Shown here: in pieces, positions 10,249-63,741 of the stretch
Layout: each line of letters begins with the position of its first letter
Numbering within the stretch: position 1 is the first letter of the stretch
IMG/VR virus record: IMGVR_UViG_3300009085_000003
Location: 15,570-79,569 of that record
Origin: a virus
DNA length: 64,000 bases
Strand: one strand, 5' to 3'
The notes under the pieces: model-generated
Database searches by the model: none
Told to the model about the DNA's origin: nothing
What the model saw: the letters and a program-made list of their open reading frames with translations, nothing else
Made by a program: the position numbers and the translations under genes

Positions 10249-10277
10249 ATTATCAATACTCCTCACACATAGATTAG

Positions 10278-10315
10278 ACCGTGTGGGTATATCCGCTAGG
10301 ACACACCCACACGGT
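10278..10315 (-). other. Stem-loop after major tail gene (stability element or terminator without U-tract)
   Basis: 11-bp inverted repeat ACCGTGTGGGT...ACCCACACGGT. Confidence 0.5.
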
Positions 10316-10326
10316 AGGTCAACATT

Positions 10327-11865
10327 TTACAGCTTGGTGGCGGTGCCGACGAGAATAATGCCGTCGGTCGCATTACCAGCCAAACCAGCTACAGCCAGAT
10401 TGTTTGCGGCAACGCCAGCAAAGGTATCTGGGAACGCAAGTCGGTGTGCATAGTCAAACACCGGCAGGTTCATCACGCGGGGCGCGGTCATTGTCCAGTC
10501 CGCACCGCCATTGAACGTGCCAAAGATACGTGCCGTGGGTGTCGCAGTTGAGTGCGAGAACCAGCCGACCTCAGCAGTTGGGAATATGATGTCATACAAG
10601 ACACCAGCTCCGCTACCAGAGAATGCGACTTCCACCCAGCTTTCGCCGCCATCAAGGGTGTAGTACAGATGCCCACCCGAGCCCAGCCAGAACCTCTTGG
10701 ATGTCAGGACACAAACAGCAGTGCCATCATCAGCGGAGGGGCTGGTGGTCGTGGTCGCCCAAGTCAAGCCACGGTTGATGCTCTTAATCACAACACCACC
10801 AACACCAAAGCACACAATGGTGTCGTTCTTGTCGCCATGGATGCGTGTCAGGTCAGCAGAGGTTGCTGAACCAGCGCTCTTAACTTCCACACCGGCGGTG
10901 ATATTGTCACTAAAGTAGACATAACCGTCCTCAGCCGAGAACCACACTTCGGTCGAGTTGGACACGAACATATCCAATGGTTTGTGGCTGCCATCAAAGC
11001 CACTGGAAACCTTGGTGAAGGTTCCCGGCACACCAGTGCTGGTGTTGATAGCTGCGTAGAAATACGCGCCGTTGGATGACAAAACAACCAGATAGTTACC
11101 GACGATATCGATAGCCAGAGGCTGGTCGCTGGCGCTTGTCCATCCAGCAATGTTGGCTTGGAACCAGTTTGCCCCACCATCCAGAGAATAGACAATCTCA
11201 GACGGCATACCGGGAGAACCGGAGCCACTGTCCTTGGTCACACCGTAGATGAGCTGCGTGCCATCGCTGACAATTCCGCACTCACCACAGGAGAACTTGC
11301 TGTGATAGACGATATCTATCACCTCAAGGTCAACCTGAGTTGTGGCACCCTCTCCAAACGAGATGGAGCCAACGGGGTAAATGTCGTCAAGTGTCAGGGA
11401 CAGGCTATCTTCCATGGCATCATCAGAATCCCAGCTTGTGCGGGAGCCGAGGTCTTTGCTGTCGACCAAGGCACCGCTGTAAATCAGAACGTAGTCTGAC
11501 CAGCCGTTGAGGAAATCGCTCAAGTCCTCGCAGTTTCCGGTGACTTCGTACAGATTGAAACGGCAACCCATGGTGAGCAGCTGACGCGGGATAGAGCCGT
11601 GCTTCTCGTGCATGAGCAGCGTGGCGCTTGCCAAATCCGGCGCGGAAATCTGGCGTGCTACCAGTTTGTAGCGCCCGACTTGACGTGGGTCATGAACCCA
11701 AATGGGGTCTGCTCCACCAGTCTCGGGCAGCGTGACACCCTCAATCGCCATATACTGGGCATTCTGTCCGGCATACTTGACTGGGTTAGCAGGGCTTGCA
11801 CCGTTGAACTGGATGAAGTTTCGCTTGTGTTTTTGAGTAATTAGCTCATCGGCATTAATGGTCAT
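10327..11865 (-). CDS. Major tail protein with C-terminal BNR/Asp-box beta-propeller
   Basis: Upstream of the chaperone; Asp-box repeats SLDGGANW, SINRGLTW, TLDGGESW, TFNGGADW; strong RBS. Confidence 0.65.
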   Translation of the reverse strand: MTINADELITQKHKRNFIQFNGASPANPVKYAGQNAQYMAIEGVTLPETGGADPIWVHDPRQVGRYKLVARQISAPDLASATLLMHEKHGSIPRQLLTMGCRFNLYEVTGNCEDLSDFLNGWSDYVLIYSGALVDSKDLGSRTSWDSDDAMEDSLSLTLDDIYPVGSISFGEGATTQVDLEVIDIVYHSKFSCGECGIVSDGTQLIYGVTKDSGSGSPGMPSEIVYSLDGGANWFQANIAGWTSASDQPLAIDIVGNYLVVLSSNGAYFYAAINTSTGVPGTFTKVSSGFDGSHKPLDMFVSNSTEVWFSAEDGYVYFSDNITAGVEVKSAGSATSADLTRIHGDKNDTIVCFGVGGVVIKSINRGLTWATTTTSPSADDGTAVCVLTSKRFWLGSGGHLYYTLDGGESWVEVAFSGSGAGVLYDIIFPTAEVGWFSHSTATPTARIFGTFNGGADWTMTAPRVMNLPVFDYAHRLAFPDTFAGVAANNLAVAGLAGNATDGIILVGTATKL

Positions 11866-11891
11866 ATCGATACTCCTTATATTAGTTATTT

Positions 11892-11976
11892 AAAAATACC
11901 GCGCACCCCTTGGGTACACGGTAGCCAATCTCCGAAACCCACTCAGATGCAGTGGTCTGGCAAAATCATTATAGCA
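11892..11976 (-). promoter_or_regulatory. Extended -10 promoter followed by leader terminator upstream of the major tail gene
   Basis: TGCTATAAT at 11976-11968; hairpin TACCGTGTACCC-AAG-GGGTGCGCGGTA then TTTTT (11923-11892). Confidence 0.55.
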
Positions 11977-11986
11977 CATAGGTACG

Positions 11987-12694
11987 CTAGTGATACTTAT
12001 TATCAATCGACTTGATGAACTCCACTATTGTGTCTGGTGTGTCATCCCGGTTGAACTCGACTCGCACAAAACGCGGGTCGTCCGGGGTCTCGCGTACCGC
12101 TTTCAGCTCCTCCATGCGTATCTCCAAGCTATTCGCTAAATCCCAGATTGCCAATTGGTTGTGTTGCTGCGCCAGCTTGATGGCTTTTTCGTAGTTGTGC
12201 TCAACCACGGAGACGTCAAGAAAGAACTTGCGGCTCTCCTTATCGTACCACCCGCCGATATGGGTCTGGTTGTTCTTTTTCAGCAAATCTTGATGCTTGT
12301 CGATAAAGTTGGCGACATCGTTCGGATTCGGACTCGTGGCATCGATGATAGTTTCGTAGTCTTTAAAGATTGACAGGGCATAGCCATCAGCTGGGCTACT
12401 GGCACTGCGTGGCTCAAACGTGAACCCGCCCTCAGTCAGCATCCGGTCGGTCAGGAACTTACCCATCTCAACTTTTTCCTCTGGAGCAAAATACCGCTCC
12501 TCTTGAACCTGTCGAGGCGCATCAGCACCCATGGATTCCGACTCGGCTTTACCAGAACCATCACCCTCGCCACTACCACCAATTTTGCCCGGACGCCCAG
12601 CGTGCCCAAAATTACCGGAGCCCTTGCCTCCTTTGGTAGTGACAAAAACAGACAGGATGTTTTCAATCGCAGTGAAATCATTTGGCTCGGTCAT
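11987..12694 (-). CDS. Tagged putative virion cargo protein (tag plus unknown domain)
   Basis: KGGKGSGNFGHAGRPGKIGGS at aa 21-41, then GGFT..GYALS..GGWYD..FLDVS..LAQQHNQLAIWD. Confidence 0.6.
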   Translation of the reverse strand: MTEPNDFTAIENILSVFVTTKGGKGSGNFGHAGRPGKIGGSGEGDGSGKAESESMGADAPRQVQEERYFAPEEKVEMGKFLTDRMLTEGGFTFEPRSASSPADGYALSIFKDYETIIDATSPNPNDVANFIDKHQDLLKKNNQTHIGGWYDKESRKFFLDVSVVEHNYEKAIKLAQQHNQLAIWDLANSLEIRMEELKAVRETPDDPRFVRVEFNRDDTPDTIVEFIKSIDNKYH

Positions 12695-13956
12695 GGGACA
12701 AATCCTTGTATCTTACGATTGATTTTAACCTCTTTCCACGTCATCACTTGCCCACGGCGTGTTCCCAGAGGGTTCATTAAGTCCTCCCGGCTGATAAGAC
12801 CATACGCCTCACCCGCGTTACCAGATGACTGGGCAAGGTCATATTGCCAGTAGGACAGGTTACGGTTTGCGATATCGCACGCGCAAATTCTCCGAGCCAT
12901 CTCAGCGGTAGCGAGTCGCGCCACCATGTTGGCATATCGCATGTCCATGCGGTCGTGGTCGGCGCGGGGCGCTCCAGCTTCGTAACGCACGAGCACCCGG
13001 TCTGGTGGTCTCCAGTTGTAGTAACAGCCACACCAGTCCACACCGACCCACTGACCAGACGTTGCGTTGTAAACCGACTGACCGATGCCGATGAGACCCG
13101 GCTCCGAGTCACGGATAACCGCACGCGCCAGCGCATACCCGACCGCAGCCGGGTCGTAGGAATTCGATGATGGATATGCCCAGCACGGATACGGGGTAGT
13201 TTCCCAGATTAAAACGCACTGGCAGTCATCCTCTGTGATTCCGGTATTATCAATATGGTAGTCGTAGATGTCCAAGTCGTCAGCAAAGTTCGTGGCGTCT
13301 GACGGGTCAATGGGAGCGGTTTGGTTTTCGTATAGGATGGGACGCACAATTAGCCGGATGTCTCCCTTGACGGTTACAGAACCACCCGCAATGCTTATCT
13401 TGACCGGGCGAACGCGCCAGCGGTCACTGATATCGTCCCCGGTGAAACGGTCGCCACTGTCGAAATAGACTCGAATATAATCCTCATTGGTGACCGTGGT
13501 CGCCAGTGTTATCGTGAAGGTATCGTTGAGACCATCTCCGTCCACGTCACTTAAAACCACCGCGGCACTGCCAATAAGTGTTTCGCTCTTGTATCCCAGA
13601 TGCTGTACCTTGCCCTCGGGGAGCTGCAAGGTGAGCCAGCGGTCATCGGCTGCGGAGTATCCCAAGCGCATCAAATCTTGCTGCGGATAACGTGGGAATT
13701 GTAGCGTGACCTCTTTATAGTGCGGGGCAGGAGCAAAACCGAGGAGTGGCATCAGCCTCTCCTCAGCTGAAATAATAGCCCGATTGATATCATCGCGCCC
13801 AGCAGCATCGGCTGTCAGCCAAGGGTACTGAAACACGATGTCGTTACACTGGCTGGACACCGGGAAGCGGGCGCTCGATGACAGCCCCCAGTAGTGCCAT
13901 GGGTGGTAACCAATTCTCTCGCGCCACTCCTCCAGTGATAACAGGGCTTCTGACAT
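12691..13956 (-). CDS. Head-tail connector / neck protein (putative)
   Basis: 421 aa between the capsid region and major tail gene; called by position. Confidence 0.5.
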   Translation of the reverse strand: MSEALLSLEEWRERIGYHPWHYWGLSSSARFPVSSQCNDIVFQYPWLTADAAGRDDINRAIISAEERLMPLLGFAPAPHYKEVTLQFPRYPQQDLMRLGYSAADDRWLTLQLPEGKVQHLGYKSETLIGSAAVVLSDVDGDGLNDTFTITLATTVTNEDYIRVYFDSGDRFTGDDISDRWRVRPVKISIAGGSVTVKGDIRLIVRPILYENQTAPIDPSDATNFADDLDIYDYHIDNTGITEDDCQCVLIWETTPYPCWAYPSSNSYDPAAVGYALARAVIRDSEPGLIGIGQSVYNATSGQWVGVDWCGCYYNWRPPDRVLVRYEAGAPRADHDRMDMRYANMVARLATAEMARRICACDIANRNLSYWQYDLAQSSGNAGEAYGLISREDLMNPLGTRRGQVMTWKEVKINRKIQGFVP

Positions 13957-13960
13957 ATTA

Positions 13961-14284
13961 TCAATCTCCTCGGCTGGATAGGAAAGCCATGATGTGATGC
14001 CACAGCAAGGTCATGCCAAACATCACCAGCCAGTACCAAACTGCCACGCCTATCGTACTATCGTATAAGACCATGGCGAAAATTGCGAACACGAGCGTGA
14101 ACCAGAACGAGATACAGAGCGGGCAGGTAAATCCCTCGGCAATCCACTCGTGCTTAGTGCGGAGGGAAAGTTCCCTGATTTGTTTGAACACCGCGAACGT
14201 CCCGGTTTCGTATGCGACCATGTATGCCAGCCGATAGGCTGCCAGTGACGAAAGCATCAGGAACGCAACGAGCGACGGTATCAT
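13961..14284 (-). CDS. DUF1360-like membrane protein
   Basis: LAAYRLAYMV...FTCPLCISFW signature with hydrophobic helices. Confidence 0.75.
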   Translation of the reverse strand: MIPSLVAFLMLSSLAAYRLAYMVAYETGTFAVFKQIRELSLRTKHEWIAEGFTCPLCISFWFTLVFAIFAMVLYDSTIGVAVWYWLVMFGMTLLWHHIMAFLSSRGD

Positions 14285-17161
14285 CTAGCCCCTTTTCTTG
14301 CTGCCAAGGAAACCATCCAAGAACGGTTTATCCGCCACTGGCGTCTCATTCACGGTGGAGACGCGGGGCTTCACAGACTCCGAACGCGCTTGCGCCTCGG
14401 CATGTAGCTCATCCTGCGACGCGGCTTTTTCGGGGTTGCGGGTCTTGGTTGCCTGAGTATTCACTGGCGGGTTGGCTCGCGCACCAATCACACGAAAGAC
14501 GCGCAACTTCTCCATGTCCGCCACATCGGTGGCAAGGACGTCGAGATAGCGACCCGACTGACTGGCGCCAGCACGATAAGTGTGCCCATTGACTTTGAAC
14601 GTCATGTTGCCTTGGGCGCTGCCAATATATTCCATGCGCACCTTGGCGGGCTCAATATTGACATTTTCAATCCGCTTGACGTTAATAGGCTGACCACCAC
14701 CACCAACACGTGGTGCTTGCTGAGATGCAATCACACGCTTGGCGGCAATAATTTGTTTTCCTGCTTTACTACCACAACCACTACAAGCCATCATCTTGTT
14801 TACTCCTTTATAGTAACCAGAATATTGTTTTGAAAGTCTCCCAAGAATCTCTTTGCCTCGAGTAGAGAGCTCTCCCTGCTTGGTCAGGGTTAACATGCGC
14901 CTGTGACCGGTATCAATGCGATAAATCATCAGGGGTTCTGGAACGTGCTGCCCACAGATACCATTGACCGCGCATCTCACAAAATATTCCCAGTCCTCCC
15001 AAGACTCATAGGTCTCGTCAAACTTCATGCGCTGAGCGCACTCCGTATACATGAGGACTGTGACAGCGTGCTGCAACTTCCAGTCCATTCTATTATAACT
15101 CTTTAAGCGTTCGATTGAGTCACCGGACTTTTGCCGCAGGATATAGTCTGAGTACACATATGAGATTTCATCGTCGCTGCGTGCCAGAGCGCCCAGTAAC
15201 ACATCCAGTGCGTTATTGGTTAGCATATCATCACAATCTAAAAACATGAGGGTCGGTGCTATGGCGGCATCGATACCGAGATTCCGTGCAATCCCAGCCC
15301 CATGCTTTCCCATGTTCGGCACCACGCGGGCGAACGGGTACGGAGACATAATGTCGCCGGTGATTTCACTCTTGTCGTCCTCAATCGTATCATCTACGAT
15401 TATCAATTCCCACTCACGGCACGACTGGGCAACGACGCTCTCAATGACCTCTGGCAGATACCGGGCATGTCCCTTGCCTACCGGGACAACGACACTGACC
15501 AGCGGAAATAGATATGAGTAGATAGCATCAGGGCGGCGCAACAGGGGGGCGCCCATAGGGTATACCCTGTCCCTCATCCATGGCAAATCCTCATCGATAG
15601 TACGGTAAGGCTTCGTGACGTGGGCACCAGCATCATGTAGGCGGTATCGAAACAGCGGGGTTGTCGATACCCGGCGAGCGGTGAAACCAACCGACAGCCC
15701 ACGTGTCCAGAATTCCGCATCCTCTCCGGGTGCAAACTTTTGCTTATGCCAACCAGCTCGGCGCCACATCTCCTTGCGGAACATGGCTGCGCTCGGTATG
15801 CAGTTGGCGGGCGGGTTGGTGAGGCTGCTCTGTATATCCCAGCTGAATTCCGGCGGAAACTGGGATGACCCCAAGGTTTTACCCTTGGCGTCTATCAGGG
15901 TCAAACCGGCATAGGCGATGCCCAAAGAACGGTCTTGCTCCATGGCGCCCGACAGCAAGCCCACATATCCGGCTGCCAGTTCATCGTCAGCGTCAAGACA
16001 TATTATCAATGGGTACCGAGCTGCTTGAATGCCAGTAGTGCGTGCCGCCGCCACGCCCTGATTCGCCTGTGTGATGATTTTGACCAGCGGGTTTGACCCA
16101 TAGCGCTCACGAATCAACTGGACACTGTTATCTTTTGACCCATCATCCACCACAATTATCTCGTCGGGCTTCTGGGTTTGTTTCAGTGCACTATCGATGG
16201 CGCCCATCACCCACTTGCTATAGTTGTAATTCGTGATAACCACGCTCACGCCATGGGTATCTTTTTCATTCTGGAGCTCATGGGCAATGCCCTCGTACAA
16301 CTTGGCGTATTGCGCCATGATATTCGACCAGTCGTACTGGGCTGCTTTTTCGCGTGCCCGGTCAGACATCTCAGCGCGGTGCGCCTGTATGTATTCGTAT
16401 CCAGCCGCCAGACCCTCGATATCTCCGGGGGCAACAAGGTAACCATCCACCTTGTGGGTCACGATATCAGCTGTGCCGCCCCAGTTGTACCCGAGAACTG
16501 GCACGCCACACATCATTGCCTCCAGTGTACCAACACCAAAGGTCTCAATGGTTGTTGCCAGATAGATGTTTGCTGAGCCAACCAGTACCATCATGTCAGC
16601 ATGACTCATGGTGCCCACTACCCGTAACTTGTCCAGTGCAGGCTTATTCGGTACCGCGAACGTAGATACAATGTCGATACCCTTGGCAGCCAGCTCCCAA
16701 GCCGGTGTAGGGTCACATACGTCACCGACCCGGTTCTTGTTCCAGAGAGCATAGTTCACCGGCTGGTCGTGTCTGGCATCTGTCAAGTCGATACCGTGTC
16801 CAATCACTACTGGGCTGATACGCATATCGCGTTTGAACGGCATCGCTACCCACTGGCTGGGAACGGTTATTTTCAATGCCTTACGGCTGCTGTCTACAAT
16901 CTCGTGGTTGACAGCACTGTGCCAGCTGACATAGGACATATGGGGGAGGTCGGCGAAATAGAGACCATGGCTGTGGAGAACGTCAACACGCTTCTCACCC
17001 CCACGCGCGGCAATATGCACAGCCACTACATCAGCGTTTTTCCAATCGTTCGTAATCTCTATCCCATATCGGGGCAGGTATTTATGCTGGGCATGAACCA
17101 CGCGTCCAATGCCATTGTCATCAGATGCATTATTAGGATTCAGGTTTAGGAATAGTTTCAC
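14285..17161 (-). CDS. Multi-domain glycosyltransferase (GT4 + GT2 + GT2 + CxxC-containing tail)
   Basis: ETFGVGTLEAMMCGVPV (GT4); VSVVITNYN..VVDDGS..LDADD and VSVVVPV..IVDD..LDCDD (two GT2). Confidence 0.9.
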   Translation of the reverse strand: MKLFLNLNPNNASDDNGIGRVVHAQHKYLPRYGIEITNDWKNADVVAVHIAARGGEKRVDVLHSHGLYFADLPHMSYVSWHSAVNHEIVDSSRKALKITVPSQWVAMPFKRDMRISPVVIGHGIDLTDARHDQPVNYALWNKNRVGDVCDPTPAWELAAKGIDIVSTFAVPNKPALDKLRVVGTMSHADMMVLVGSANIYLATTIETFGVGTLEAMMCGVPVLGYNWGGTADIVTHKVDGYLVAPGDIEGLAAGYEYIQAHRAEMSDRAREKAAQYDWSNIMAQYAKLYEGIAHELQNEKDTHGVSVVITNYNYSKWVMGAIDSALKQTQKPDEIIVVDDGSKDNSVQLIRERYGSNPLVKIITQANQGVAAARTTGIQAARYPLIICLDADDELAAGYVGLLSGAMEQDRSLGIAYAGLTLIDAKGKTLGSSQFPPEFSWDIQSSLTNPPANCIPSAAMFRKEMWRRAGWHKQKFAPGEDAEFWTRGLSVGFTARRVSTTPLFRYRLHDAGAHVTKPYRTIDEDLPWMRDRVYPMGAPLLRRPDAIYSYLFPLVSVVVPVGKGHARYLPEVIESVVAQSCREWELIIVDDTIEDDKSEITGDIMSPYPFARVVPNMGKHGAGIARNLGIDAAIAPTLMFLDCDDMLTNNALDVLLGALARSDDEISYVYSDYILRQKSGDSIERLKSYNRMDWKLQHAVTVLMYTECAQRMKFDETYESWEDWEYFVRCAVNGICGQHVPEPLMIYRIDTGHRRMLTLTKQGELSTRGKEILGRLSKQYSGYYKGVNKMMACSGCGSKAGKQIIAAKRVIASQQAPRVGGGGQPINVKRIENVNIEPAKVRMEYIGSAQGNMTFKVNGHTYRAGASQSGRYLDVLATDVADMEKLRVFRVIGARANPPVNTQATKTRNPEKAASQDELHAEAQARSESVKPRVSTVNETPVADKPFLDGFLGSKKRG

Positions 17162-17796: not shown

Positions 17797-17820
17797 TGTG
17801 TGCTCCTTAATTATTATCAA

Positions 17821-18552
17821 TCAGGAATTATTACCCAGACATCCTGCGCGGCGCAGCTCCTCGTAGTCATCCTCGCTGAGCTGCCTTGCTGGGTGCATCC
17901 AGTCTCCCTCTTTAACGAATTGTCCGCCGCGTACCATAATCTGGTAACACAGCGCCCATTGTGCCTGACCATACACTCCCAGCTCTGGCATAGACGCAAG
18001 GCGGTTGGTTCCTTGGAGCTCTATCTCCCATGGTGACATGCCCGGCGTCAAGATTCGCTTAAAGCTCTCGACATTCCAGATACTGGCTTGCAGGCTGACC
18101 TGATACGGGGTGTGGTAGGAACGGAATATGTCGACATCACCACGATGGGTAATCATATTGATTTTGCCGCAGTTTAATCTATCCGTGGTGAGGTCGAAGC
18201 GCAGCGCGTGGGGGTGCTCAGTCATCCAGACCTGCCCGGCGATAAGAGCCTGATAGCTGACCTGCCTGACCAGCCAGTAATCCTCGAGCATCACCAGCAG
18301 CAGCGGGTCGTTGGTATATTTCATCACCTTTAACAAAGCGTCCGACCACTTGTTTGCTGGGTAGTCGGACATTGCCCCGATGGAATAGAATTCGTAACGT
18401 TTTTCGTTTATCGGGAAATCTGGTTTGGTGAAGCCTGCCAGTAAGACTGGGTTGGCTGTGATGGTGTGGTCTGATGCATACTTATCCCACTGGTGCATAA
18501 AACCCTGCAAGAGCCAATTGTGTTTGTCGGATGTCATTACAACGATTCGCAT
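17821..18552 (-). CDS. Glycosyltransferase-like protein (GT-A fold, putative)
   Basis: LLLVMLEDYWL acidic motif, YQVSLQASIW..SPWEIE; context next to other sugar enzymes. Confidence 0.55.
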   Translation of the reverse strand: MRIVVMTSDKHNWLLQGFMHQWDKYASDHTITANPVLLAGFTKPDFPINEKRYEFYSIGAMSDYPANKWSDALLKVMKYTNDPLLLVMLEDYWLVRQVSYQALIAGQVWMTEHPHALRFDLTTDRLNCGKINMITHRGDVDIFRSYHTPYQVSLQASIWNVESFKRILTPGMSPWEIELQGTNRLASMPELGVYGQAQWALCYQIMVRGGQFVKEGDWMHPARQLSEDDYEELRRAGCLGNNS

Positions 18553-18634
18553 GTTATCTCTTGTCCCACTCGATTATAGTATATTATCAATCGAAAGGCA
18601 AGCAGGAAAATCGGGGAATCTGACCCGATTTAAC

Positions 18635-19801: not shown

Positions 19802-21259
19802 CTAGTTATTCTCTGGGACAGGCGAATAGTAGCTCGGGATAGTGGTATCGCCTGCGGTCTTACCGCCATTGACGAAGTAGCCACTATCGGTGAACGGTGA
19901 ACGTTCGTGTGCCAGAGGTGCGTATCCGACATTATCAATCCGTGCCGCCAGATACGGGGTGAGCAGCATGAGCCGGGGCTCGGTCTTGGCAAGCACCTGA
20001 ACACAGAAATTGTTCGGTGGCTTCTTGTGCCACATAAAGCGACCGCTATCTGTGGTGTAGAAGCTGCCATCCGGGGCGAACAGGTTCGCCATTGCCATGG
20101 CACCGTTCGGTGAGTCGTAGCTAAAGTATTCCATGTAGGTCACTGGCATACGACCGAGAACGGTCATGGGCAGGATAAAGACCCCAGCCGAGAACACGCC
20201 CGGAGCCACTTCGGTTTCGGGGATTGCATCGTCCAAAACCACCGGGACTTTCTGACCGTCGATGAGCAGGTACTGACCTGTATATTCATACAGGTTGCCA
20301 CGCATTTCATCGCGCATCCGTTCCACGTCAGCTGAGTTAAGTGACAGTTCCGCTGAATTCAGGGTCTGGCAGCGATAGCTCAGGTAAGTGCACGGGTAGC
20401 TCTCTGTGATTGCATAGAACAGAGAGAACGGCATGACGATTTTCCATGACACCGGGTCAAGCCCAGCGCGGGAGGCAAGCCATTTCAGGTTGCGCATGGT
20501 GCTGGTAATCAGGCGGATAAAGCCCTCAGCATCGTCCTCGATTTGAACGTCGTTATAGTCGTAGACAATGGAGTCAGCTGCCGGGCAAGCGACGCCAGTT
20601 TCAGCATCCTGATACCCAGTATTGACCAGAGTCTCCAGACCCCAGAATTCACGATACCCGCCGCCCGCCGTGTTATTGGTGGGTGTACCGGTGTAGAGAA
20701 TCCGGGCGAAGTCACGCGACCACGTGACACCGAGCTCAAACAGAGCCTTGGCAATTTCATTCTGAGCAGCTTTCGCAGCGTCAAAACCGATGATGCCGGG
20801 GGTCTGGGGATTATCGCCAGCGCCAGCAAACGGATTGCCGTAGATGTCAAAATCGGTGAATTCTCCCCGATTAGTGACACGTCCCGCGCGGTCTACGTCG
20901 TAGACCTTGGTCATGCGGGAGAACCGACCAAACACAAAGCTGTGGGTGCACAGCTTCATGACACCAGTCACGGGCGGGTCATCACAGACACCGGTCGGCT
21001 CATCGCCTGACGATGCGGTGACACCAGTGATGATGCCATACAACGGGTTGGTCTCATTCGCTGCTTTGACCGGAAGCTGAGCTTGCAGACCCAGCTTGGG
21101 CAGAACCATTGCTGAGAACAACGGCTTTGATAATCCGGGGCTTGAGAACAAGCCACCCATACCGTGTCCCATCGTTGCAGACGGGGTACTGGATGGAACG
21201 TCTTTCAGGCTCACGGTGGAGAGCAGCGATTTCGCTAGTTTTTCGTAATCAATGTCCAT
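19802..21259 (-). CDS. Major capsid protein
   Basis: 485 aa directly after the protease/scaffold gene; strong RBS; terminator downstream. Confidence 0.8.
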   Translation of the reverse strand: MDIDYEKLAKSLLSTVSLKDVPSSTPSATMGHGMGGLFSSPGLSKPLFSAMVLPKLGLQAQLPVKAANETNPLYGIITGVTASSGDEPTGVCDDPPVTGVMKLCTHSFVFGRFSRMTKVYDVDRAGRVTNRGEFTDFDIYGNPFAGAGDNPQTPGIIGFDAAKAAQNEIAKALFELGVTWSRDFARILYTGTPTNNTAGGGYREFWGLETLVNTGYQDAETGVACPAADSIVYDYNDVQIEDDAEGFIRLITSTMRNLKWLASRAGLDPVSWKIVMPFSLFYAITESYPCTYLSYRCQTLNSAELSLNSADVERMRDEMRGNLYEYTGQYLLIDGQKVPVVLDDAIPETEVAPGVFSAGVFILPMTVLGRMPVTYMEYFSYDSPNGAMAMANLFAPDGSFYTTDSGRFMWHKKPPNNFCVQVLAKTEPRLMLLTPYLAARIDNVGYAPLAHERSPFTDSGYFVNGGKTAGDTTIPSYYSPVPENN

Positions 21260-21302: not shown

Positions 21303-23348
21303 CTACTGTGGGATGGTCGGCAAAACAAATTGCATGAAGTCATCAATCGGAGTAGATTTCTTCATGTCAACGTTTTTAAACTTGTTGACCACATCCTCGG
21401 CGGTCAGGGTGTTTGTGACCGAGTTGGACGCAATATACTTATCAGAACCCTTTTCCCGAGAGTTCTTGGGCATATTGCCTTCGAGACTTTCCAGACGCGA
21501 GGCGATTTCCTTGGTGGCTGCCTGACTGGATTGCAAAGCCTCTTTGAGCGCCGTGATTTGGTCGTCCCGGCTCTTGGTCTCTTTGGCGGCACTGGCTTGG
21601 ATAGCCTCAGCCGAGTTGATGAAAGGCTGAATCGCTGATGCAAGAGCATCGCTCAACACCGTGGCGAACTGCCCCATGGAGAGGTCGGATAACTTGAGGT
21701 TATCAGCTTCTTTGCCAACTGCCGCCTCATCAGCAACAGGTGCCTCGGGCTCCGCAGCAGGTTCTGGTTTTTCAACCTCGGGCTCCGCAGCAGGTTTTTC
21801 CTCGGGCGTTTCGGCAGCCTCAGCCTCGGGTTTTTCGGTTACCTCGGCTTCGGGTTTTTCTTCGTCCTCGTCCTTTTTGGCTGGCTCAGATTCCTTATAA
21901 GCCAGACCACTCATTTCAGCCGCCTTGGTGACCTTGGTTGCATTATCAATCACATCCGCAACCAAGCCATCATCGGCAAGCAGCTTCTTGAATTCATCGA
22001 GTTTTTTATTGATAGACGTCATACTGTCATCTCCTTGTTTTACTGCAAAGGCAGTGAGTATATTACTTGCATATCCGGCTGGCAGGATGGAGCGCTCAAA
22101 GCGCCGGATGTTATGAAACACACCTTGCTCATCGGGTTCGTTGATGGGGTGTGTGAATCCCAGTGAAACTTGCAGGTCGGACGATGATTCTTTTATCGCC
22201 ATGGCAACCCGCGGGTCAAAGAATATCCCGGACTCGATAAGTACCCGGTCGTAGACCATGTTGAAATCACAGACGCCGATATCGACACCGGGCACGTGCC
22301 ACCAGCGCAACGTTCCGTAATCACCATCGCCGTCTGCCCGGTCACAATCAGCCTCCAGCGCCTTGGTTGAGACAATCTCACGGTCTCGGTCGATGAAAGC
22401 AGTGGACGATATCGCAACCCAGCGGTCTTGGTTCCGGGCATCCTTGAATACCACCATGCTGCCGCGACCGCCAGTGACATCCGCATCATCATCGTTGAAT
22501 CCAACAGGTGGAATGGATTCTTTCGCGGCTCGACCAATACCGAACAAACGTTCGACCCACCCCTTGACCCCATAGGTTTCGGTTTTTTCAATCGATTCTT
22601 TGCGGCTCTTGGGGTGCTCGCTCGGATAGATGCCTGTCACAATCTTATGCGCTCGAGCGGCAATCGCCTTACGCGCCTCTGGCTCATACCTTGCCAGCTC
22701 ATCGGAGCCCGCGACCTTCGTGAAAAAGTCCGGGTCTCCGCCATACTTGTTTGCCAGATGCTTGGCAAGTCCAGCCATGTTGCCAGCGCCTTTTGTCTTG
22801 CTTGATTCTTTCCATAGGATATTATCCCGAATGAAAGATAGCGGGAACTCAGTATTATCAATCATCTCTACCTCAGGCGCCGCTACCGCAACTGGGGACG
22901 GCAATGCGACCCACTGTTTTTCTACCGGATAGGGTTCGCCACGAAACACGATTTGGCTACCCTCGAACAACTCAAAGTCCATCCGGTAGTATAGGTTGGT
23001 GGGTATAGGGCTGGTCAGAGCGGCAGGAGTATTGGGGCTGCCAGTAACAGTGCTCTTGAGACCAGCACGAATAACAGCGTGGTCATCGTAAGTATCCACA
23101 ACATAATAAACCGTCATATCACCGGGCACACCGGCGAAAAATCGTTCAACGTGCCGTACAACTTCACTATCAATATAAGCCGATAAATCCTGTATCGAAA
23201 GTTCTTTTTTAGCATCCGATACGTTGGCATACAAAGCCTTGACCTGAGCCTCAGCCTTGTCCTGACCGTCGTGCGTGCCAACCACCTTGCCGGTGTCCTT
23301 GGCAATCACAACCCATTTTTCACCACGTTTCATCGCTTTATACGGCAT
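21303..23348 (-). CDS. Prohead protease / scaffold fusion
   Basis: DRDREIV..WWH..SLGF..ERSILP..ASN core like HK97-type maturation proteases; acidic Pro/Glu linker and coiled-coil C-terminus. Confidence 0.8.
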   Translation of the reverse strand: MPYKAMKRGEKWVVIAKDTGKVVGTHDGQDKAEAQVKALYANVSDAKKELSIQDLSAYIDSEVVRHVERFFAGVPGDMTVYYVVDTYDDHAVIRAGLKSTVTGSPNTPAALTSPIPTNLYYRMDFELFEGSQIVFRGEPYPVEKQWVALPSPVAVAAPEVEMIDNTEFPLSFIRDNILWKESSKTKGAGNMAGLAKHLANKYGGDPDFFTKVAGSDELARYEPEARKAIAARAHKIVTGIYPSEHPKSRKESIEKTETYGVKGWVERLFGIGRAAKESIPPVGFNDDDADVTGGRGSMVVFKDARNQDRWVAISSTAFIDRDREIVSTKALEADCDRADGDGDYGTLRWWHVPGVDIGVCDFNMVYDRVLIESGIFFDPRVAMAIKESSSDLQVSLGFTHPINEPDEQGVFHNIRRFERSILPAGYASNILTAFAVKQGDDSMTSINKKLDEFKKLLADDGLVADVIDNATKVTKAAEMSGLAYKESEPAKKDEDEEKPEAEVTEKPEAEAAETPEEKPAAEPEVEKPEPAAEPEAPVADEAAVGKEADNLKLSDLSMGQFATVLSDALASAIQPFINSAEAIQASAAKETKSRDDQITALKEALQSSQAATKEIASRLESLEGNMPKNSREKGSDKYIASNSVTNTLTAEDVVNKFKNVDMKKSTPIDDFMQFVLPTIPQ

Positions 23349-23498: not shown

Positions 23499-23723
23499 TT
23501 ACGACATTGTTACCACAGGTCTCCACTGACCTGTCTCACCGCAGTGTCTGCATATGAACGTTACCCGCAATGGGAACGCGGCATTATCAATATACAACCG
23601 AAAGCCATCGGTTTCACCGATGACCGAATCGCAATGGCGGCAGTGGAAGTCTTTTAACGGGACTCCTGCTTTGCTACAGTCGCCATGGATTTTTGAATCA
23701 TTTTTGGGAGTCTCTTTGTCCAT
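23499..23723 (-). CDS. Small zinc-ribbon protein (Mu Com-like regulator, putative)
   Basis: CRHC-x25-CRHC, 74 aa. Confidence 0.55.
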   Translation of the reverse strand: MDKETPKNDSKIHGDCSKAGVPLKDFHCRHCDSVIGETDGFRLYIDNAAFPLRVTFICRHCGETGQWRPVVTMS

Positions 23724-46115: not shown

Positions 46116-46153
46116 AGTCTCACTCCTTGTGCGTTATTGTATCACATTATCAA

Positions 46154-47312: not shown

Positions 47313-47339
47313 TCACACACTCCTCTCTCATGATTATTA

Positions 47340-48270: not shown

Positions 48271-48642
48271 TCATAGTGCATCCAACGAGGTGACCCTGAT
48301 GCGGTCTGCCAGATACACAACCCCGCGGGCATGAACCTTGGGGCGTATGAGACCCGCTGCCTCGCACCTGACGATACGCCTATTCTCCCGACGTCGAAAC
48401 ATCTTGCTGAAAAAATCTTGCGCCTCCTCGAGCGTCAGGAACACATGGAACCCAGACACGTAACGGGTACCGCGCGACCCATCGCATACAACCTTGACGT
48501 CAGCGTCCACCCACTCACCCAGTGGCAGCACCCGGCTCTTGTTTGTGCCGTGGAACAGAGACAAGGGTTGACCATTTTTGACCTCGACAATGCGGTAACA
48601 GGTAATCGCTCCTAATTGCGTGAAACTTCCCATGATTATCAT
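48271..48642 (-). CDS. Hypothetical phage protein
   Basis: ATGA overlap; YVSGFHVF motif. Confidence 0.6.
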   Translation of the reverse strand: MIIMGSFTQLGAITCYRIVEVKNGQPLSLFHGTNKSRVLPLGEWVDADVKVVCDGSRGTRYVSGFHVFLTLEEAQDFFSKMFRRRENRRIVRCEAAGLIRPKVHARGVVYLADRIRVTSLDAL

Positions 48643-48854
48643 TGCTCCGGCTGCTGCTGCTCGGGAAGCAAAGACACGCGCGAATTCCATAAAGCCACAG
48701 CCTGCCCAGCTGGGAGCTGTGGTGTCCTGAGACCACACACGATGCAGGACACATGCTCTAAAACCTCCCGGTCACCCTGCAAGTTGCGGCGGGTTACTGC
48801 GTATGCCCGCGCCTTTTTCCCGCAGCAGGGACAGGATTCAATCCGTACTGACAT
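48639..48854 (-). CDS. Lar-family (restriction alleviation-like) zinc-ribbon protein
   Basis: SCPCCG..VSCIVCG..AVALWNSR. Confidence 0.7.
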   Translation of the reverse strand: MSVRIESCPCCGKKARAYAVTRRNLQGDREVLEHVSCIVCGLRTPQLPAGQAVALWNSRVSLLPEQQQPEQ

Positions 48855-55599: not shown

Positions 55600-55643
55600 C
55601 TCGACGCTCCTTATAAACACACTTACATTATAACACATTATTA

Positions 55644-56174
55644 TCAATCAGCTTGCCAGTGCTTTGGAATCCCCAGCCGCCGTTCGATAGCGCGGCGGGT
55701 ATCCCGCTGTAGCTGTAACTTGTGCCCGTTCTGACAGTACCACATCCTTGCAGCAAAATAGCGGTCATCCTTGGGAGATGTCCTACCCTGTGCCTTGCCA
55801 GCCCCCACCCAGTCACATATCATCTCGGTGAGGTAGGGCTCCTCTATGGGTAGGATAATAAACCCGGTCTCATCCTCGGGGTGTGTCCACCACTGCCAGT
55901 GGTGTCGGTTGCGCTTTTGATGCAGGAACCACGCCCGGTCAAATGCAGCGTCCCCGGTGTTGGTAGGCTTGTAGTACCCGGTCTCGTTACGTCCGGTCTG
56001 GATGCTGCCACGCTTGACACCATAAAAGTGCTTGGCATAGGGGATGAACTCATCCGGGCTGAACTTGCTCAGGTCGTGTACGATTCCACGCCAAGCGATA
56101 CCCGCCCGGATACACTCGAGCAGCACGTACAGCTTGTGGCGGAGCAAATAACGCAGGTAGGGCAGGTAGGTCAA
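55644..56174 (-). CDS. DUF5662-like HD-family protein
   Basis: RHK..HDLSKF..HQKRNRHHW..EMICDW; start uncertain. Confidence 0.75.
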   Translation of the reverse strand: MTYLPYLRYLLRHKLYVLLECIRAGIAWRGIVHDLSKFSPDEFIPYAKHFYGVKRGSIQTGRNETGYYKPTNTGDAAFDRAWFLHQKRNRHHWQWWTHPEDETGFIILPIEEPYLTEMICDWVGAGKAQGRTSPKDDRYFAARMWYCQNGHKLQLQRDTRRAIERRLGIPKHWQAD

Positions 56175-58437: not shown

Positions 58438-59611
58438 GTATCTCCCTTTCCGTGGAGAGGTGGTCTTTGATGATGACCGCTCGAGACATGAACCCATGCC
58501 CGGTCAGGGTCGGGATAGCTGCGGGAGCGGTGTATATCAGCAACTGGTTCGGGTCAAGCTCATCCACCATGGCTTGCACCATGTCGAGTATCAGGTTGCT
58601 GTCCGGGGTCACCTGAAACTGTATGGCAATCGGGACATTCTTGGGAACCCCAGCCCAGCATAGCTCTTTGTCGGACGGCACAATTTGGACATTTGGGATG
58701 ACCTTGATACCAGCCTCTTGGAGATACCTGCCCACCCACAGGCTGCGGTAGCGCTGCCAGTGTCTCTGGGCAGCTGGGTCTTGGTTACCGATGTAATAGG
58801 GCGGAGTGAGCACAGCCATGATATCAGACTGGGCTATCTTGCGGGCATATATCTCAGCTTTGAACCACAGCCCCTGATAGAATCTGTCGTGTGTGTAAAA
58901 TGATACAACGGTTTTATTCAAATCCAACCCATCGATGCCATCACGTCCCCATACCAGATACCACAGGTCGGGCTCCACATCCACTACCGCTCCGCCCACC
59001 CACGTTGCGATACGCGCAGGGACACTGGTCGGGATATGTTCTGGTAATAGCTCCGGGAATCCGAGTGGATGGCTCGAGGTGAATGTCTTACGCTCCAGCT
59101 CTTTGTAGTCCTTGGAATCATCTGGCAAATCATCAAGGGTCTTGGGGTTTTTCTTTTTGTAGATGGCGGCATTGTCCAGCGCTTGCTGGGATTCGGCACC
59201 AATCTTGTCCATCAGGGCTTGCAGATTATTATCATTCGCCTTGACTGACTGGACTATCTCCAGCAACTTGGAGTCATCGTGCACGCCCATCTCAGCTGTG
59301 ATACCGATGGCAGCCAGCGCGATGCGCTCCTCGTCCGCCGTCAGGGTCACGTAGATAACTGGCACCGGGGTCTTGCCACCGCGTCGATACGCCAGCGTAG
59401 CCCGCAGGTGACCGTCCACAACATGCTGCGTGGTGGTGTTCACCTTGACCGCATCCACCCATCCGATTTCGTTGAGAGAGCCCTCTACAGCGTGTTGCTG
59501 TAACTGGGTATGAATGCGCCAGTTGAATGGGTTGGCAAGTAGCTCCTCAGCCGGAACTTCGACTATTGTCGAGTCCATCCGATTTTTCCAAGCAGGTTTG
59601 GTTCCCGTCAT
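58397..59611 (-). CDS. ParB-N domain fused to DUF4417-like domain
   Basis: NPFNWRIH..VVDGHLR; SFYTHDRFY..YRSLWVGRYLQEAGIKVIPNV. Confidence 0.7.
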   Translation of the reverse strand: MTGTKPAWKNRMDSTIVEVPAEELLANPFNWRIHTQLQQHAVEGSLNEIGWVDAVKVNTTTQHVVDGHLRATLAYRRGGKTPVPVIYVTLTADEERIALAAIGITAEMGVHDDSKLLEIVQSVKANDNNLQALMDKIGAESQQALDNAAIYKKKNPKTLDDLPDDSKDYKELERKTFTSSHPLGFPELLPEHIPTSVPARIATWVGGAVVDVEPDLWYLVWGRDGIDGLDLNKTVVSFYTHDRFYQGLWFKAEIYARKIAQSDIMAVLTPPYYIGNQDPAAQRHWQRYRSLWVGRYLQEAGIKVIPNVQIVPSDKELCWAGVPKNVPIAIQFQVTPDSNLILDMVQAMVDELDPNQLLIYTAPAAIPTLTGHGFMSRAVIIKDHLSTEREIHDKEHPVIPPEPR

Positions 59612-61501: not shown

Positions 61502-61502
61502 G

Positions 61503-61766
61503 CTACAGTTTTATCAGGATGGTTCCACTGTGCTGACGCTGATACCTGCGCCAGTAATACTTGCGGATGGACAACCACCCAATATCAAAATGCTCGTGCA
61601 CATGGGGGAACGGAAACGCATCGATGCACCGGATGTCTGGCACCACGCCCCACGAAATACGCCAATGCTTAAGCCGTACAAAACGCCAGAATATGATACG
61701 GCTCTTGAGAACCCCGCTGGCTGGGCTGCGGTGAAATCGAACATATCGGACTACTTGACGTATCAT
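61503..61766 (-). CDS. Hypothetical basic protein (strand choice uncertain)
   Basis: ATGA overlap with the upstream gene. Confidence 0.4.
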   Translation of the reverse strand: MIRQVVRYVRFHRSPASGVLKSRIIFWRFVRLKHWRISWGVVPDIRCIDAFPFPHVHEHFDIGWLSIRKYYWRRYQRQHSGTILIKL

Positions 61767-61993
61767 GGTTGTTTTTTCTCCACGACCACATAGCAGTCAC
61801 ACCCAGTACACGACATGCGACTTTTGATTTGGAAGTCCATCAACTTCCAACATCCCATGGCGCCCTCAACGGCACCGGGATAGCTACACCACACCGGCTG
61901 TGGGTACAGCTGCGCCATCTCCTCCCATGTAATACCCTGCTCAACTAACTTATCGAACTCCATGCGGGTCAATTTATGAAACGGTTTTATCAT
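61763..61993 (-). CDS. Hypothetical Cys-rich protein
   Basis: QPVWCSYP..MGCWKL..CTGC. Confidence 0.65.
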   Translation of the reverse strand: MIKPFHKLTRMEFDKLVEQGITWEEMAQLYPQPVWCSYPGAVEGAMGCWKLMDFQIKSRMSCTGCDCYVVVEKKQP

Positions 61994-62751
61994 TCTCGTG
62001 TATCCTCCTCGCTTTGTAATGGGATGTACCGACCTACCCTGCCGGTGATGTGTTCCATGGTCTCTCGAGCAGACACCAGAAGCTGGGATAGCTGCATCAC
62101 GATATCAGCATTGGTTGTGTTGGCTTGCAGGATGGTCAGGTCTCCCATCAGGTCTTGCAGCCGGGACGCCACGCGGCGCAGCACCACGTCGTGGGTCACC
62201 GGGCTGGCGCTGGGTGGAGGGATGATGGTCGGCTCACCGGCAAAGTCATCCTCGGGCTCCCAGCTGTCAAGTATATTCTGGGAAACTTCACCGATATTAT
62301 CAATCGGCTGTTCTGGGTCACGCAGCATCAGCCCTTTCATGCTCTCGAGACTGGGCGGAATGCCGTGCTTCTCCATATAGTCCAGAGACACCCGCATCAC
62401 CCGCTCCCAGTCCTGCCCGTAGCTCATGGCGAACACGTAGTGGGAATACGGCAACACGTCATACTTGCGCTGGGCATCGGCAGTATAAAAAGCAGCCACC
62501 GACGCGTAGAGCCGAACCGACCGCATCGCCTTGCCTACCACACGACCCACGGCGGCACAAATCTCGAGCCTGCCGACATCAAGGTGGTTGGCAATCGATA
62601 GCGTGTGTAACTCATTGACGATGTTACCGATACGCCAGTAGCTATGGGTCATGGTGTCACGGATTGCCAGCAGCTCATCCAGCATGTTTTGCGGCATGAA
62701 GTTGATGAGCGACTTGGTGGACGGCTGCGTTAAAGCAACATTATCATTCAT
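61990..62751 (-). CDS. Hypothetical protein (possible DNA-binding)
   Basis: TAATG overlap; WRIG..LPYSHY pattern. Confidence 0.65.
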   Translation of the reverse strand: MNDNVALTQPSTKSLINFMPQNMLDELLAIRDTMTHSYWRIGNIVNELHTLSIANHLDVGRLEICAAVGRVVGKAMRSVRLYASVAAFYTADAQRKYDVLPYSHYVFAMSYGQDWERVMRVSLDYMEKHGIPPSLESMKGLMLRDPEQPIDNIGEVSQNILDSWEPEDDFAGEPTIIPPPSASPVTHDVVLRRVASRLQDLMGDLTILQANTTNADIVMQLSQLLVSARETMEHITGRVGRYIPLQSEEDTRE

Positions 62752-63059
62752 TACCAGCACTTCTCCATTCTAATTTTTGTCGGGATGGTGGCGTGCCAAG
62801 CGTCGAGGTCATACCCTCGGGCAATCTGCCGCTGAGCGAAACGCTGGCGGCTTTTCCGGCTATTGACGATACCCTCTTGGTGACAACGCTTACACACCAA
62901 CCCACAATTCTCATCGCAATCTCTCCAAGGCTCACTGTCTCGCTCATGGTATATCCAGTGATGCAAATCCAGCGCCTGTTTTTCAGCTCCACACTCCTCA
63001 CATACCTTGCCGCGCGTAGCTATCAGGAACAACTTAAGCTCTTTGCGCGGTAATATCAC
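62751..63059 (-). CDS. HNH-like endonuclease
   Basis: CEECG..DLHH..NCGLVCKRCH. Confidence 0.75.
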   Translation of the reverse strand: MILPRKELKLFLIATRGKVCEECGAEKQALDLHHWIYHERDSEPWRDCDENCGLVCKRCHQEGIVNSRKSRQRFAQRQIARGYDLDAWHATIPTKIRMEKCW

Positions 63060-63271
63060 AGCCGTTTAATATCCGTGCTTGGATAGATTCGATGAACCAC
63101 CTTGCTACGATACCGAGCCTTGAATTCAGGCTTGGCAGTCTCGGTAATCACCGCGACCTCGTAGTTGTCGGTCAGGACGCCCTCACTGTTCTGTACCCGA
63201 GCCGTCACATATCCCTTACCGTCCGGTGTCTCCACCGGGTCTTGGAACCGAAACGCGGTAGGCGTGGTCAT
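63056..63271 (-). CDS. Hypothetical protein
   Basis: ATGA overlap, GGAGG RBS. Confidence 0.6.
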   Translation of the reverse strand: MTTPTAFRFQDPVETPDGKGYVTARVQNSEGVLTDNYEVAVITETAKPEFKARYRSKVVHRIYPSTDIKRL

Positions 63272-63741
63272 TGGCTGATGACTCCCTCCATGATGATACG
63301 CGTGTGACCTTTATTATCAATCACGTCGTGAATCATAAAGCTACCATGGTACTCAACATCGACCTTGATAGCACACTGCCGCACATCGGTTCCCCACTTG
63401 GTCTCGAGACGTTTCAAGGCTCGTTTGACCCACAGATACACCGCCGTGATATCCGAGTAGTCCCGCAGGTCTCCCCAGATATAGACCACGCCCCATGACA
63501 CCTCACCCCCCTCGGGAGATTGTCTCCCGGTCTTTTGCACAGCGTATTGCACCGACCCCTCAGACCCCGCTGGCACATTGCAGCGTTTTCTGGAGGCAAG
63601 GTACTCGTCGTCCGATAACCTCGGGTCATAGTGATATGTGTGACCAAACGCATCCTTTACGCCCTGTAGGAACGCAGCGTCCTCTCCGAACCTCATACAA
63701 TCAAGCCGGATAATCCCTGCAACGTGTGTCCACTGACTCAT
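63268..63741 (-). CDS. Conserved phage hypothetical protein
   Basis: MSQWTHVAGIIR..PAGSEG..IWGDLRDY. Confidence 0.7.
   Translation of the reverse strand: MSQWTHVAGIIRLDCMRFGEDAAFLQGVKDAFGHTYHYDPRLSDDEYLASRKRCNVPAGSEGSVQYAVQKTGRQSPEGGEVSWGVVYIWGDLRDYSDITAVYLWVKRALKRLETKWGTDVRQCAIKVDVEYHGSFMIHDVIDNKGHTRIIMEGVISQ

Follow-up and report, generated by a model that had tools for sequence, protein, structure and literature searches.

The DNA analysed here is a 64,000-nucleotide window, bases 15570 to 79569 of the 79,569-bp virus record IMGVR_UViG_3300009085_000003 (GC content 53%), from an uncultured, tailed, 79.5-kb phage of freshwater sediment. The majority of its genes lie on the - strand, with + strand genes totalling 8.4 kb. 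They were called by open reading frame (ORF) length and a codon model, together with family searches, and those named below are placed in Table 1. The element under study is an oriented 9-mer, with preferred flanking letters, that reads (G)ATTGATAAT(A) on the - strand, referred to as the sense form, and ATTATCAAT on the + strand. Positions are those of the window unless called genome coordinates, which refer to the whole record.

Counts and strand bias of the word

In the window the + strand has 20 copies of ATTATCAAT and the - strand a single one, exactly where an earlier interpretation made from the letters (the sequence-only reading) had placed these copies. The whole record contains 23 and 2, respectively, compared with ~0.3-0.45 expected, and the control word, read backwards, was absent from both of its strands (0/0). 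With the two strands combined, dinucleotide shuffles of the window gave 0.45 +/- 0.72 copies and at most 3; the earlier estimate was well under one per strand. No other 9-mer of the genome is as over-represented as the word, which stands at ~80 times the second-order Markov expectation, and its enrichment over expectation is ~50- to 80-fold. The 11-mer form ATTATCAATC occurs in 14 copies, as had been noticed, all on the same strand (14:0). The strand counts are 34:3 for ATTATCAWT and 52:8 for the 7-mer core TGATAAT. When the literature was searched for the word, the matches were limited to primers and unrelated sequences.

Fourteen of the 23 exact copies lie within genes, evenly spread over relative positions 0.02-0.97, and nine at junctions or between genes. 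The two frames named by the sequence-only reading were recovered, with 11 copies reading Ile-Asp-Asn (IDN, frame 0) and three Leu-Ile-Ile (LII, frame 2). The overlaps with stop codons that it described at 13957, 17813, 46146, 47336 and 55640 follow from the ORF coordinates, and the -10-like boxes beside 18583, 46146 and 55640 are present. The flanks of the copies are unrelated and the copies are not portions of longer repeats. The 7-mer core has a mean spacing of 1.5 kb and a largest gap of 5.7 kb, which matches a random uniform (Poisson-like) scatter; the exact 9-mers are denser at genome 25.8-50.2 kb, over the structural genes.

The motif has a broader form, nWTGAWAAW, for which the strand counts are ~66 and 9, and its best form is G-AWTGATAAT-A. 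When 34 AWTGATAAT sites were aligned, conservation outside the word was restricted to positions -1 (G in 23/34) and +10 (A in 20/34), and the alignment contained no -35-like element, inverted partner or hairpin arm. All single substitutions were counted on both strands (sense/antisense): at position 1, T 7/1, C 3/0 and G 2/0; at position 2, A 11/1 and G 1/0; at position 5, G 3/0; at position 6, A 5/0; at position 7, T 1/0; at position 8, G 1/0; and at position 9, A 9/0. Positions 3-4 (TG) were strict, with none in sense, and the totals were 43 sense and 7 antisense. The variants are as one-stranded as the exact copies and outnumber them (43 vs 23), which suggests graded recognition.

A second one-strand word family also extends over the whole window (TTTTCAAT, 17:0; TCTTTTTCAA, 7:0). 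It is in part the position-6 variant of the motif (sense ATTGAAAAT), and coding effects are not separated in its counts.

Table 1. Positions of the word, its variants and the genes named in the text
Feature	Window	Genome	Strand	Context
Exact copy	10249..10257		+	sense GAGGAGT-ATTGATAAT-ATG, fills gap from Shine-Dalgarno to start codon
Exact copy	11999..12007		+	gene 11987-12694(-), frame 0 (KSIDNKY)
Exact copy	13246..13254		+	gene 12691-13956(-), frame 0 (YHIDNTG); IDP here in two relatives
Exact copy	13957..13965		+	junction GAGGAG-ATTGATAAT-ATG; TGA is stop of 13961-14284, in-frame TAA, then ATG of 12691-13956
Exact copy	15399..15407		+	958-aa glycosyltransferase gene 14285-17161(-), frame 2 (ELII); relatives LVV/LIV/IVL
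Exact copy	16002..16010		+	gene 14285-17161(-), frame 2 (PLII); relatives FVT/FII/MII
Exact copy	17813..17821		+	junction; overlaps stop of 17821-18552; in sense AAGGAG and ATG 6-19 nt downstream
Exact copy	18583..18591		+	divergent intergenic; within spacer of sigma-70-like TTGCCT-N17-TATAAT (- strand)
Exact copy	19931..19939		+	gene 19802-21259(-), conserved structural protein, frame 0 (ARIDNVG); relatives ITN/LQN/LDN
Exact copy	21942..21950		+	gene 21303-23366(-), frame 0 (DVIDNAT); relatives LDT/IGG
Exact copy	22854..22862		+	gene 21303-23366(-), frame 0 (EMIDNTE)
Exact copy	23583..23591		+	between genes 23654-24115 and 21303-23366
Exact copy	26711..26719		+	gene 25775-26956(-), frame 0 (APIDNPK)
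Exact copy	30140..30148		+	methyltransferase-like gene 29789-30352(-), frame 0 (YTIDNTL)
Exact copy	34672..34680		+	2707-aa gene 30349-38472(-), frame 0 (HAIDNFY)
Exact copy	46146..46154		+	overlaps stop of 46154-46828; in spacer of GGGACA-N16-TGnTACAAT (- strand)
Exact copy	47336..47344		+	junction; holds TGA stop of 47340-48251
Exact copy	55640..55648		+	junction; holds TGA stop of 55644-56219 (DUF5662); in sense 7 nt upstream of TGTTATAAT
Exact copy	62296..62304		+	gene 61990-62760(-), frame 0 (QPIDNIG)
Exact copy	63313..63321		+	gene 63268-63810(-), frame 0 (DVIDNKG)
Reverse exact copy	4308..4316		-	sole one of the window; tail gene 3520-6411(-); background level for that protein's composition
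Variant ATTATCATT	1673..1681		+	sense AATGATAAT
Variant ATTATCATT	2272..2280		+	
Variant ATTATCATT	25204..25212		+	
Variant ATTATCATT	26977..26985		+	in sense immediately after TGTTATAATG
Variant ATTATCATT	27910..27918		+	
Variant ATTATCATT	34141..34149		+	
Variant ATTATCATT	48635..48643		+	sense AATGATAATCAT
Variant ATTATCATT	59228..59236		+	
Variant ATTATCATT	62740..62748		+	
Copy in + strand gene		5657		TATTATCATTC
Copy in + strand gene		9377		TATTATCAATA; inside vWA gene
Large terminase (TerL)	56272-57750			
Tape measure protein	6408-9515			
2707-aa multi-module protein	30349-38472		-	
Glycosyltransferases	14285-17161		-	
GH25+SH3 endolysin		13206-14102		
O/DnaD-like initiator (lambda-O-type)		4178-5203		
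DnaB helicase		2859-4184		
Primase-like protein	43203-44210			PHROG match only, E 2.7e-12
PolB-exo-like exonuclease	45345-46115			
N6/N4 methylase	41237-41821			
ParB-like/DUF4417 'nuclease'	58397-59611			adjoins terminase
Block incl. MoxR ATPase and vWA protein		5306-10981	+	codon scores and Pfam
Block		34256-35281	+	codon scores and Pfam
Block		67036-68445	+	codon scores and Pfam

Selection at the DNA level

A word of this kind could be a by-product of codon usage, amino-acid repeats or repeated DNA, with no function of its own. The gene layout offers some ground for this, as the genes lie mostly on one strand and this gives some coding-driven strand-biased words, of which TTTTCAAT is an example. 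However, two codon-preserving nulls rejected the by-product explanation, which also has to account for the unrelated flanks, and it is almost certainly wrong. Codons were shuffled among synonymous positions within each confident - strand gene, so that the protein and the codon usage were kept. In 300 such shuffles 1.22 intragenic copies were expected, with a maximum of 5, compared with 14 observed; codon permutation gave an expectation of 0.27. Copies in the reverse orientation were not enriched (1 observed vs 0.39 expected). The enrichment thus survived the codon-preserving shuffle and strand-bias test that the sequence-only reading had put forward as its check. The core TGATAAT behaved in the same way, with 40 copies in sense compared with 8.4 under the synonymous shuffle and 4.7 under codon permutation, while its reverse form was at background (7 vs 5.5 expected).

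Codon choice at IDN, Asp-Asn and LII opposes the preference of the genome. There are 14 Ile-Asp-Asn tripeptides, compared with 3.1 expected from composition, and 11 of the 14 are spelled ATT-GAT-AAT where codon usage predicts ~1 (0.35 x 0.49 x 0.43). Likewise, GATAAT spells 42 of the 78 Asp-Asn dipeptides, and five of the six Leu-Ile-Ile use TTGATAAT (TTG-ATA-AT), made from two of the rarer codons. The word is open only in frame 0 (IDN) and frame 2 (LII); because frame 1 reads TGA TAA, junction copies double as stop codons. The reverse orientation is open in all three frames, yet unenriched, and therefore coding constraints cannot yield the strand bias.

The amino acids themselves differ at the word sites. 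In conserved structural proteins the relatives show ITN/LQN/LDN, IDP, LDT, FII/MII and LVV at the positions of the word, and within the 2707-aa protein two internal paralogues have CTGAGGGAC and CTGAACGAA aligned with the ATTGATAAT of the third (34672). One or two residues differ at these sites in orthologues and paralogues; the word has therefore been written in by conservative replacements at permissive sites. Together these results show that selection acts on the word as DNA, against codon preference and through amino-acid replacement. Off-frame 'ambush' stop codons were also considered, and fail to explain the specific 11-mer or the copies in + strand genes.

Polarity of the word

The + strand genes allow the polarity of the chromosome to be told apart from that of transcription. 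These genes contain two copies in genome orientation, compared with 0.146 expected from the synonymous shuffle (two were reached in 11 of 2000 shuffles, p=0.0055). In the transcription-sense orientation they contain no copy, compared with ~3.4 predicted from the density in - strand genes. Moreover, the copies at genome 2667, 4736, 5657 and 9377 share one polarity on both sides of the O-like initiator gene, and no polarity flip was seen at the putative lambda-type origin. At 4-fold sites the sense strand has a GC skew of -0.010 in the - strand genes, compared with -0.238 in the + strand genes; therefore the - strand is G-rich regardless of gene direction, and the word lies on that strand. This reveals a chromosome-wide asymmetry of the replication type, independent of transcription, and suggests replication in a single direction.

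It is highly probable that the signal is selected, acts at the DNA level and is polar with respect to the chromosome. Such polarity favours a process with a single direction of travel along the entire DNA, and speaks against stoperators, promoters, pause sites and RNA-level signals. The sequence-only reading had offered a polar translocation or packaging signal as one explanation. The class was right, a DNA-level signal with one polarity chromosome-wide; the data do not single out packaging as the process.

A cluster of reverse 7-mers at genome 11.8-21 kb (P=0.0015) appeared at first sight to mark a polarity switch. The I/N/Y-rich composition of the tail-fibre proteins largely explains it (expected 1.45 and 0.89 vs 3 and 2 observed). 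The initiator gene itself holds overlapping GTTAAC palindromes at genome 4592-4627, next to DnaB, and is followed by an A/T-rich divergent intergenic region (genome 5200-5350, 32-36% GC). By analogy with lambda, the GTTAAC cluster is a possible origin.

The word in relatives of the phage

The closest TerL among 5.8 billion proteins is 63% identical. In IMG/VR, 80 relatives were found by TerL (39-61% identity, so at most 61%) and three by a capsid gene; a portal query yielded none. The loci screened were 58 TerL loci of at least 9 kb, the capsid-gene loci of three relatives (two of the nearest, at 59-60% identity, and one designated G001) and the complete 58-kb genome of G001. The word was absent from all of these loci, so it arose in this lineage after divergence; TGATAAT was at background in them, with no excess of exact copies. 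No other dispersed polar word was found in the nearest relatives. The relatives share only the structural module, and the whole replication/early module is private to this phage. The word travels either with the host or with the private gene set of the phage.

Two further sets of candidates did not hold. A context pattern, CATATTATCAATCTCCTC, matched eight contigs in IMG/VR, and in the five that were checked either the backwards control was also frequent or the counts were small, with no real excess. The apparent polar words of the relatives were mostly tandem or protein repeats, Shine-Dalgarno contexts, iterons or promoter units.

Possible functions of the word

Few DNA-level signals can be recognised from the genome sequence of a phage itself, and over-represented words with a fixed orientation belong to these; in the systems studied they report either the handling of host nucleases (Chi) or the structure of the virion DNA (nicks). 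As an example the present word is unusually clear; its enrichment withstands codon-preserving nulls, it is built by conservative replacements in conserved structural proteins, and oppositely transcribed genes separate the two polarities. Three known kinds of signal, namely Chi arrays, nick motifs and priming signals, give this anatomy, and the readings rank in that order.

We tentatively favour a Chi-type oriented control word. An enzyme would move along the phage chromosome in one fixed direction and recognise the word on one strand, with some probability per copy. This could be a host helicase-nuclease of the RecBCD/AddAB class or a phage-encoded equivalent. On recognition it would stop degrading the linear intermediates of replication and packaging, and spare or recombine them instead. 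Under such a mechanism every copy would be of benefit, half-active variants included, which fits the observed array. We infer the nature of the reader (a translocating nuclease), the consequence of recognition and the source of the enzyme. The context is a lambda-type O-like initiator and DnaB module without a recognisable recombinase or RecBCD inhibitor; searches of ~70 ORFs against PHROGs, Pfam and NCBIfam gave no match to a recombinase or a Gam/RecBCD inhibitor, and most ORFs matched nothing.

Known Chi sequences include AGCGG, GCGCGTG and GAAGCGG; with GCTGGTGG and GCTGGCGC all are 5-8 nt and G/C-rich. The latter two are Chi sequences of the phage arrays that offer the closest comparison (PMC12315714). 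Actively oriented Chi number 8-25 in lambdoid phages that have no recombination module, with 20 active and 3 inactive in the E. coli phage LLS (Zheng et al. 2025, PMC12315714), and the Pseudomonas aeruginosa phage MD8 has 32:0 (PMC12315714). As in LLS and MD8, the word is the most over-represented oligomer of its genome, is found in nearly one orientation (20:3 and 32:0 there, 23:2 here), lies both inside and outside genes, and accompanies lambda-type replication functions with no recognisable recombinase or RecBCD inhibitor. It is also patchy among relatives, as Chi-richness is among lambdoid phages, to which LLS belongs; the present phage, in contrast, is a 79.5-kb uncultured siphovirus-like phage and not lambdoid.

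Several points weigh against a Chi-type word. It is A/T-rich and 9-11 nt long with a single G, whereas the LLS and MD8 Chi is a G-rich 8-mer, and it is made of less-used codons and would be costly to carry for a host of similar GC content. Chi in LLS and MD8 clusters at the end where RecBCD enters, while here the copies are not clustered at an end; on the TerL-oriented map 15 of the 23 exact copies lie at 0.29-0.60 of the length (31% of the genome). More than 60 ORFs have no annotation, and a recombinase or nuclease inhibitor could hide among them. Furthermore, which strand carries the word is no evidence; either strand could be called 'active'. If the word were nevertheless the Chi of the host, it would be the first Chi rich in A/T, and its sequence could guide the search for the host of this uncultured phage lineage.

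The word may instead be a private mark of 'self', read by an enzyme of the lineage-specific replication/early module, a possibility to which we give a minor share of the probability. It would act as a phage-specified equivalent of Chi or as a priming or nicking code, telling phage DNA and its direction from host DNA. In a host genome of a few Mb, chance would give this A/T-rich 11-mer only about a dozen occurrences on each strand (extrapolated from 0.28 per 79.5 kb). If such a mark exists, the DNA machinery of the phage could distinguish phage from host DNA; a word read by a phage enzyme would be a new recognition system, its reader expected in the ~40 kb not common to the relatives.

Nick sites and priming sites are the nearest competitors of a Chi-type word. 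For a nick-site motif, a phage-encoded strand-specific nickase would cut one strand at each copy, as in the localized single-strand interruptions of the Pseudomonas phages tf and Rembedalsseter and of T5; this is possible, although on the unlikely side. We know of no nickase family for comparison. Phage tf has 14 copies of the 9-mer 5'-TACT/RTGMC-3' on a single strand despite convergent transcription (PMC3517423), and in Rembedalsseter WACTRTGAC is confined to one strand, where its 13 copies lie both within coding regions and outside them (PMC11780129). The present word resembles these motifs in being a one-strand 9-mer at no less than ~10 times chance (23:2), whatever the direction of transcription, in several reading frames and in and out of coding sequence. 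Its density of ~1 per 3.5 kb equals that of tf, its base composition is no obstacle, and the private early/replication module could hold a nickase, with the ParB-like/DUF4417 'nuclease' and a small, 164-aa endonuclease-like protein (genome 1179-1673) among the candidates. However, known nick motifs are lineage traits. Enrichment of the motif is common to 61 LUZ24-like phages with little DNA similarity, 60 of them relatives of Rembedalsseter (PMC11780129), whereas the present word is private to one lineage and absent from every screened relative, although these are distant and share the structural module alone. In tf single-substitution variants are few (3 vs 14) and sites substituted at some positions escape nicking, while here one-stranded variants are many (43 vs 23). 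A priming signal, at which a phage primase and a DnaB-type helicase would start lagging-strand primers during one-directional rolling-circle replication, is rather unlikely. A primase-like protein with an N-terminal zinc-ribbon-like motif, the DnaB helicase and the O/DnaD-like loader are all encoded in the module absent from relatives, and by the usual skew rule, from which the direction of replication is deduced, the G-rich strand that carries this strand-specific word would be the lagging-strand template. The spacing of 1.2-2.3 kb equals the size of Okazaki fragments. Nonetheless, sites of DnaG- and T7-type primases are 3-5 nt long (5'-GTC-3' in the T7 class), so that the word is far longer and more specific than is typical, and we know of no description of an 8-11-mer priming signal arrayed over a whole genome. 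The primase-polymerase of NrS-1 has a reported 8-nt recognition sequence, 5'-TTTGGTTA-3', and works better on GTG (PMC8718748). The primase call itself comes from one PHROG match, and the lack of a flip at the putative origin would require purely one-directional replication.

Regulation of transcription was weighed as well. The sequence-only reading had compared the word to the stoperators of mycobacteriophage L5, and a repressor roadblock of this operator/stoperator type, or an element that serves as a -10-like promoter or a pause site (GATAAT is part of the word), would fit an asymmetric short site in dozens of copies of which most are on the sense strand and nine of the 23 exact ones at junctions or between genes, some of them overlapping stop or start codons. 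The copies are densest over the structural genes, and three or four lie in or beside sigma-70-like promoters (18583, 46146, 55640, 26977). The stoperators of L5 and Cluster A are asymmetric short sites that follow the direction of transcription and occupy short intergenic gaps. In contrast, the present word ignores transcription by keeping its genome orientation in + strand genes, and 14 of the 23 copies are inside genes, which removes the L5 comparison. There is also no conserved -35 or flank beyond the -1 G and +10 A, the spacing from word to -10 varies (4, 4 and 7 nt), and the strongest early promoters (49290, 44575 and 51239) lack the word. No integrase, repressor, sigma factor or RNA polymerase family was recognised in the ~70 ORFs scanned, nor any other sign of a temperate lifestyle, and a transcriptional role is improbable. 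Less probable still, to the point of being very doubtful, is a half-site for Fur or another dimeric transcription factor that would titrate a host regulator. TGATAAT is the heptamer of the 7-1-7 Fur box, AATGATAATCAT occurs at 48635, and the copy at 11999 forms with its upstream flank a near-perfect 7-1-7 palindrome of Fur-box architecture, TGATACT-T-ATTATCA (11991-12005). A dimer site, however, lacks polarity, yet the counts are 52:8 and 34:3; the position matrix has no inverted partner, and palindrome-like matches are only modestly above the expectation for an enriched half-site. What probability lies beyond all of these readings falls to something not yet described.

Two host factors were rejected as readers of the word. 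The IHF consensus (WATCAANNNNTTR) lacks a match in its TTR part, and only 6 of 9 positions match a DnaA box.

A family of strong sigma-70-like early promoters, TTGACA-N17-TGnTACAAT, was found on the - strand at 49290-49262, 44575-44547, 51239-51210 and 42853-42826. Promoter-like sites in the 40-60 kb region number 31, compared with 14.7 in shuffles.

Other features of the genome and its relatives

The ends of the record are identical over 120 bp, a terminal repeat that may have arisen by overlap in assembly if the genome is circular or permuted. The phage is contained in seven runs, six from freshwater sediment (2017) and one from soil (2024). Pieces among the assembled contigs of four runs are almost all letter-identical, short and of low depth, and gave no usable variants.

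The ParB-like protein weakly matches a Type II methyltransferase model in PADLOC, and a PDB sequence search with it and with the primase gave no matches; the primase-like protein has no Pfam, NCBIfam or PDB support. The virion genes include those for a MobA-like nucleotidyl transferase, a SAM (S-adenosylmethionine) methyltransferase and the 958-aa multi-glycosyltransferase (14285-18552, 29789-30352), the last of which is conserved in relatives (44% identity). Together these genes may indicate that the virion is glycosylated. The endolysin combines a GH25 muramidase with an SH3_3 wall-binding domain. Its nearest protein-atlas clusters are mostly from Chloroflexota and Bacillota, a weak lead to a host in one of these phyla.

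Several relatives carry oriented words of their own. In L024 (IMGVR_UViG_3300037247_000471; TerL 55%) the E. coli Chi GCTGGTGG is the top 8-mer of a 10.9-kb locus, 5:0 in the TerL sense at 3423-9840. In L028 (IMGVR_UViG_3300020577_005397) CCAACCGC is found 9:0 within 3.2 kb (130-3190), and in L063 there are six copies of CTCAGCTTG within 2.1 kb (142-2215), both upstream of the terminase genes. The L028 and L063 clusters are tight, one-stranded and composed of dispersed sites with unrelated flanks, and recall the end-clustered Chi of LLS and MD8. These three loci show that oriented words recur within the relative group.

L102 (IMGVR_UViG_3300027627_000017), among the nearest relatives, has an array of 12 ATGTGTGT at 17926-18280, mostly AAATGTGTGTR with several copies 12 nt apart, which is likely its origin. 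At 920-4080 it also has eight copies of a ~50-bp unit, a T-run followed by TTGGAGTT-CGTGATAGG, spaced by ~500 bp, that look like repeated early promoter/terminator units. Finally, L022 (JAUCQD010000187.1, 57,936 bp), binned as Methanothrix sp., has a TerL 56% identical and is similar in size to the complete 57,950-bp G001; the contig is probably a phage genome that was wrongly placed in an archaeal metagenome-assembled genome.

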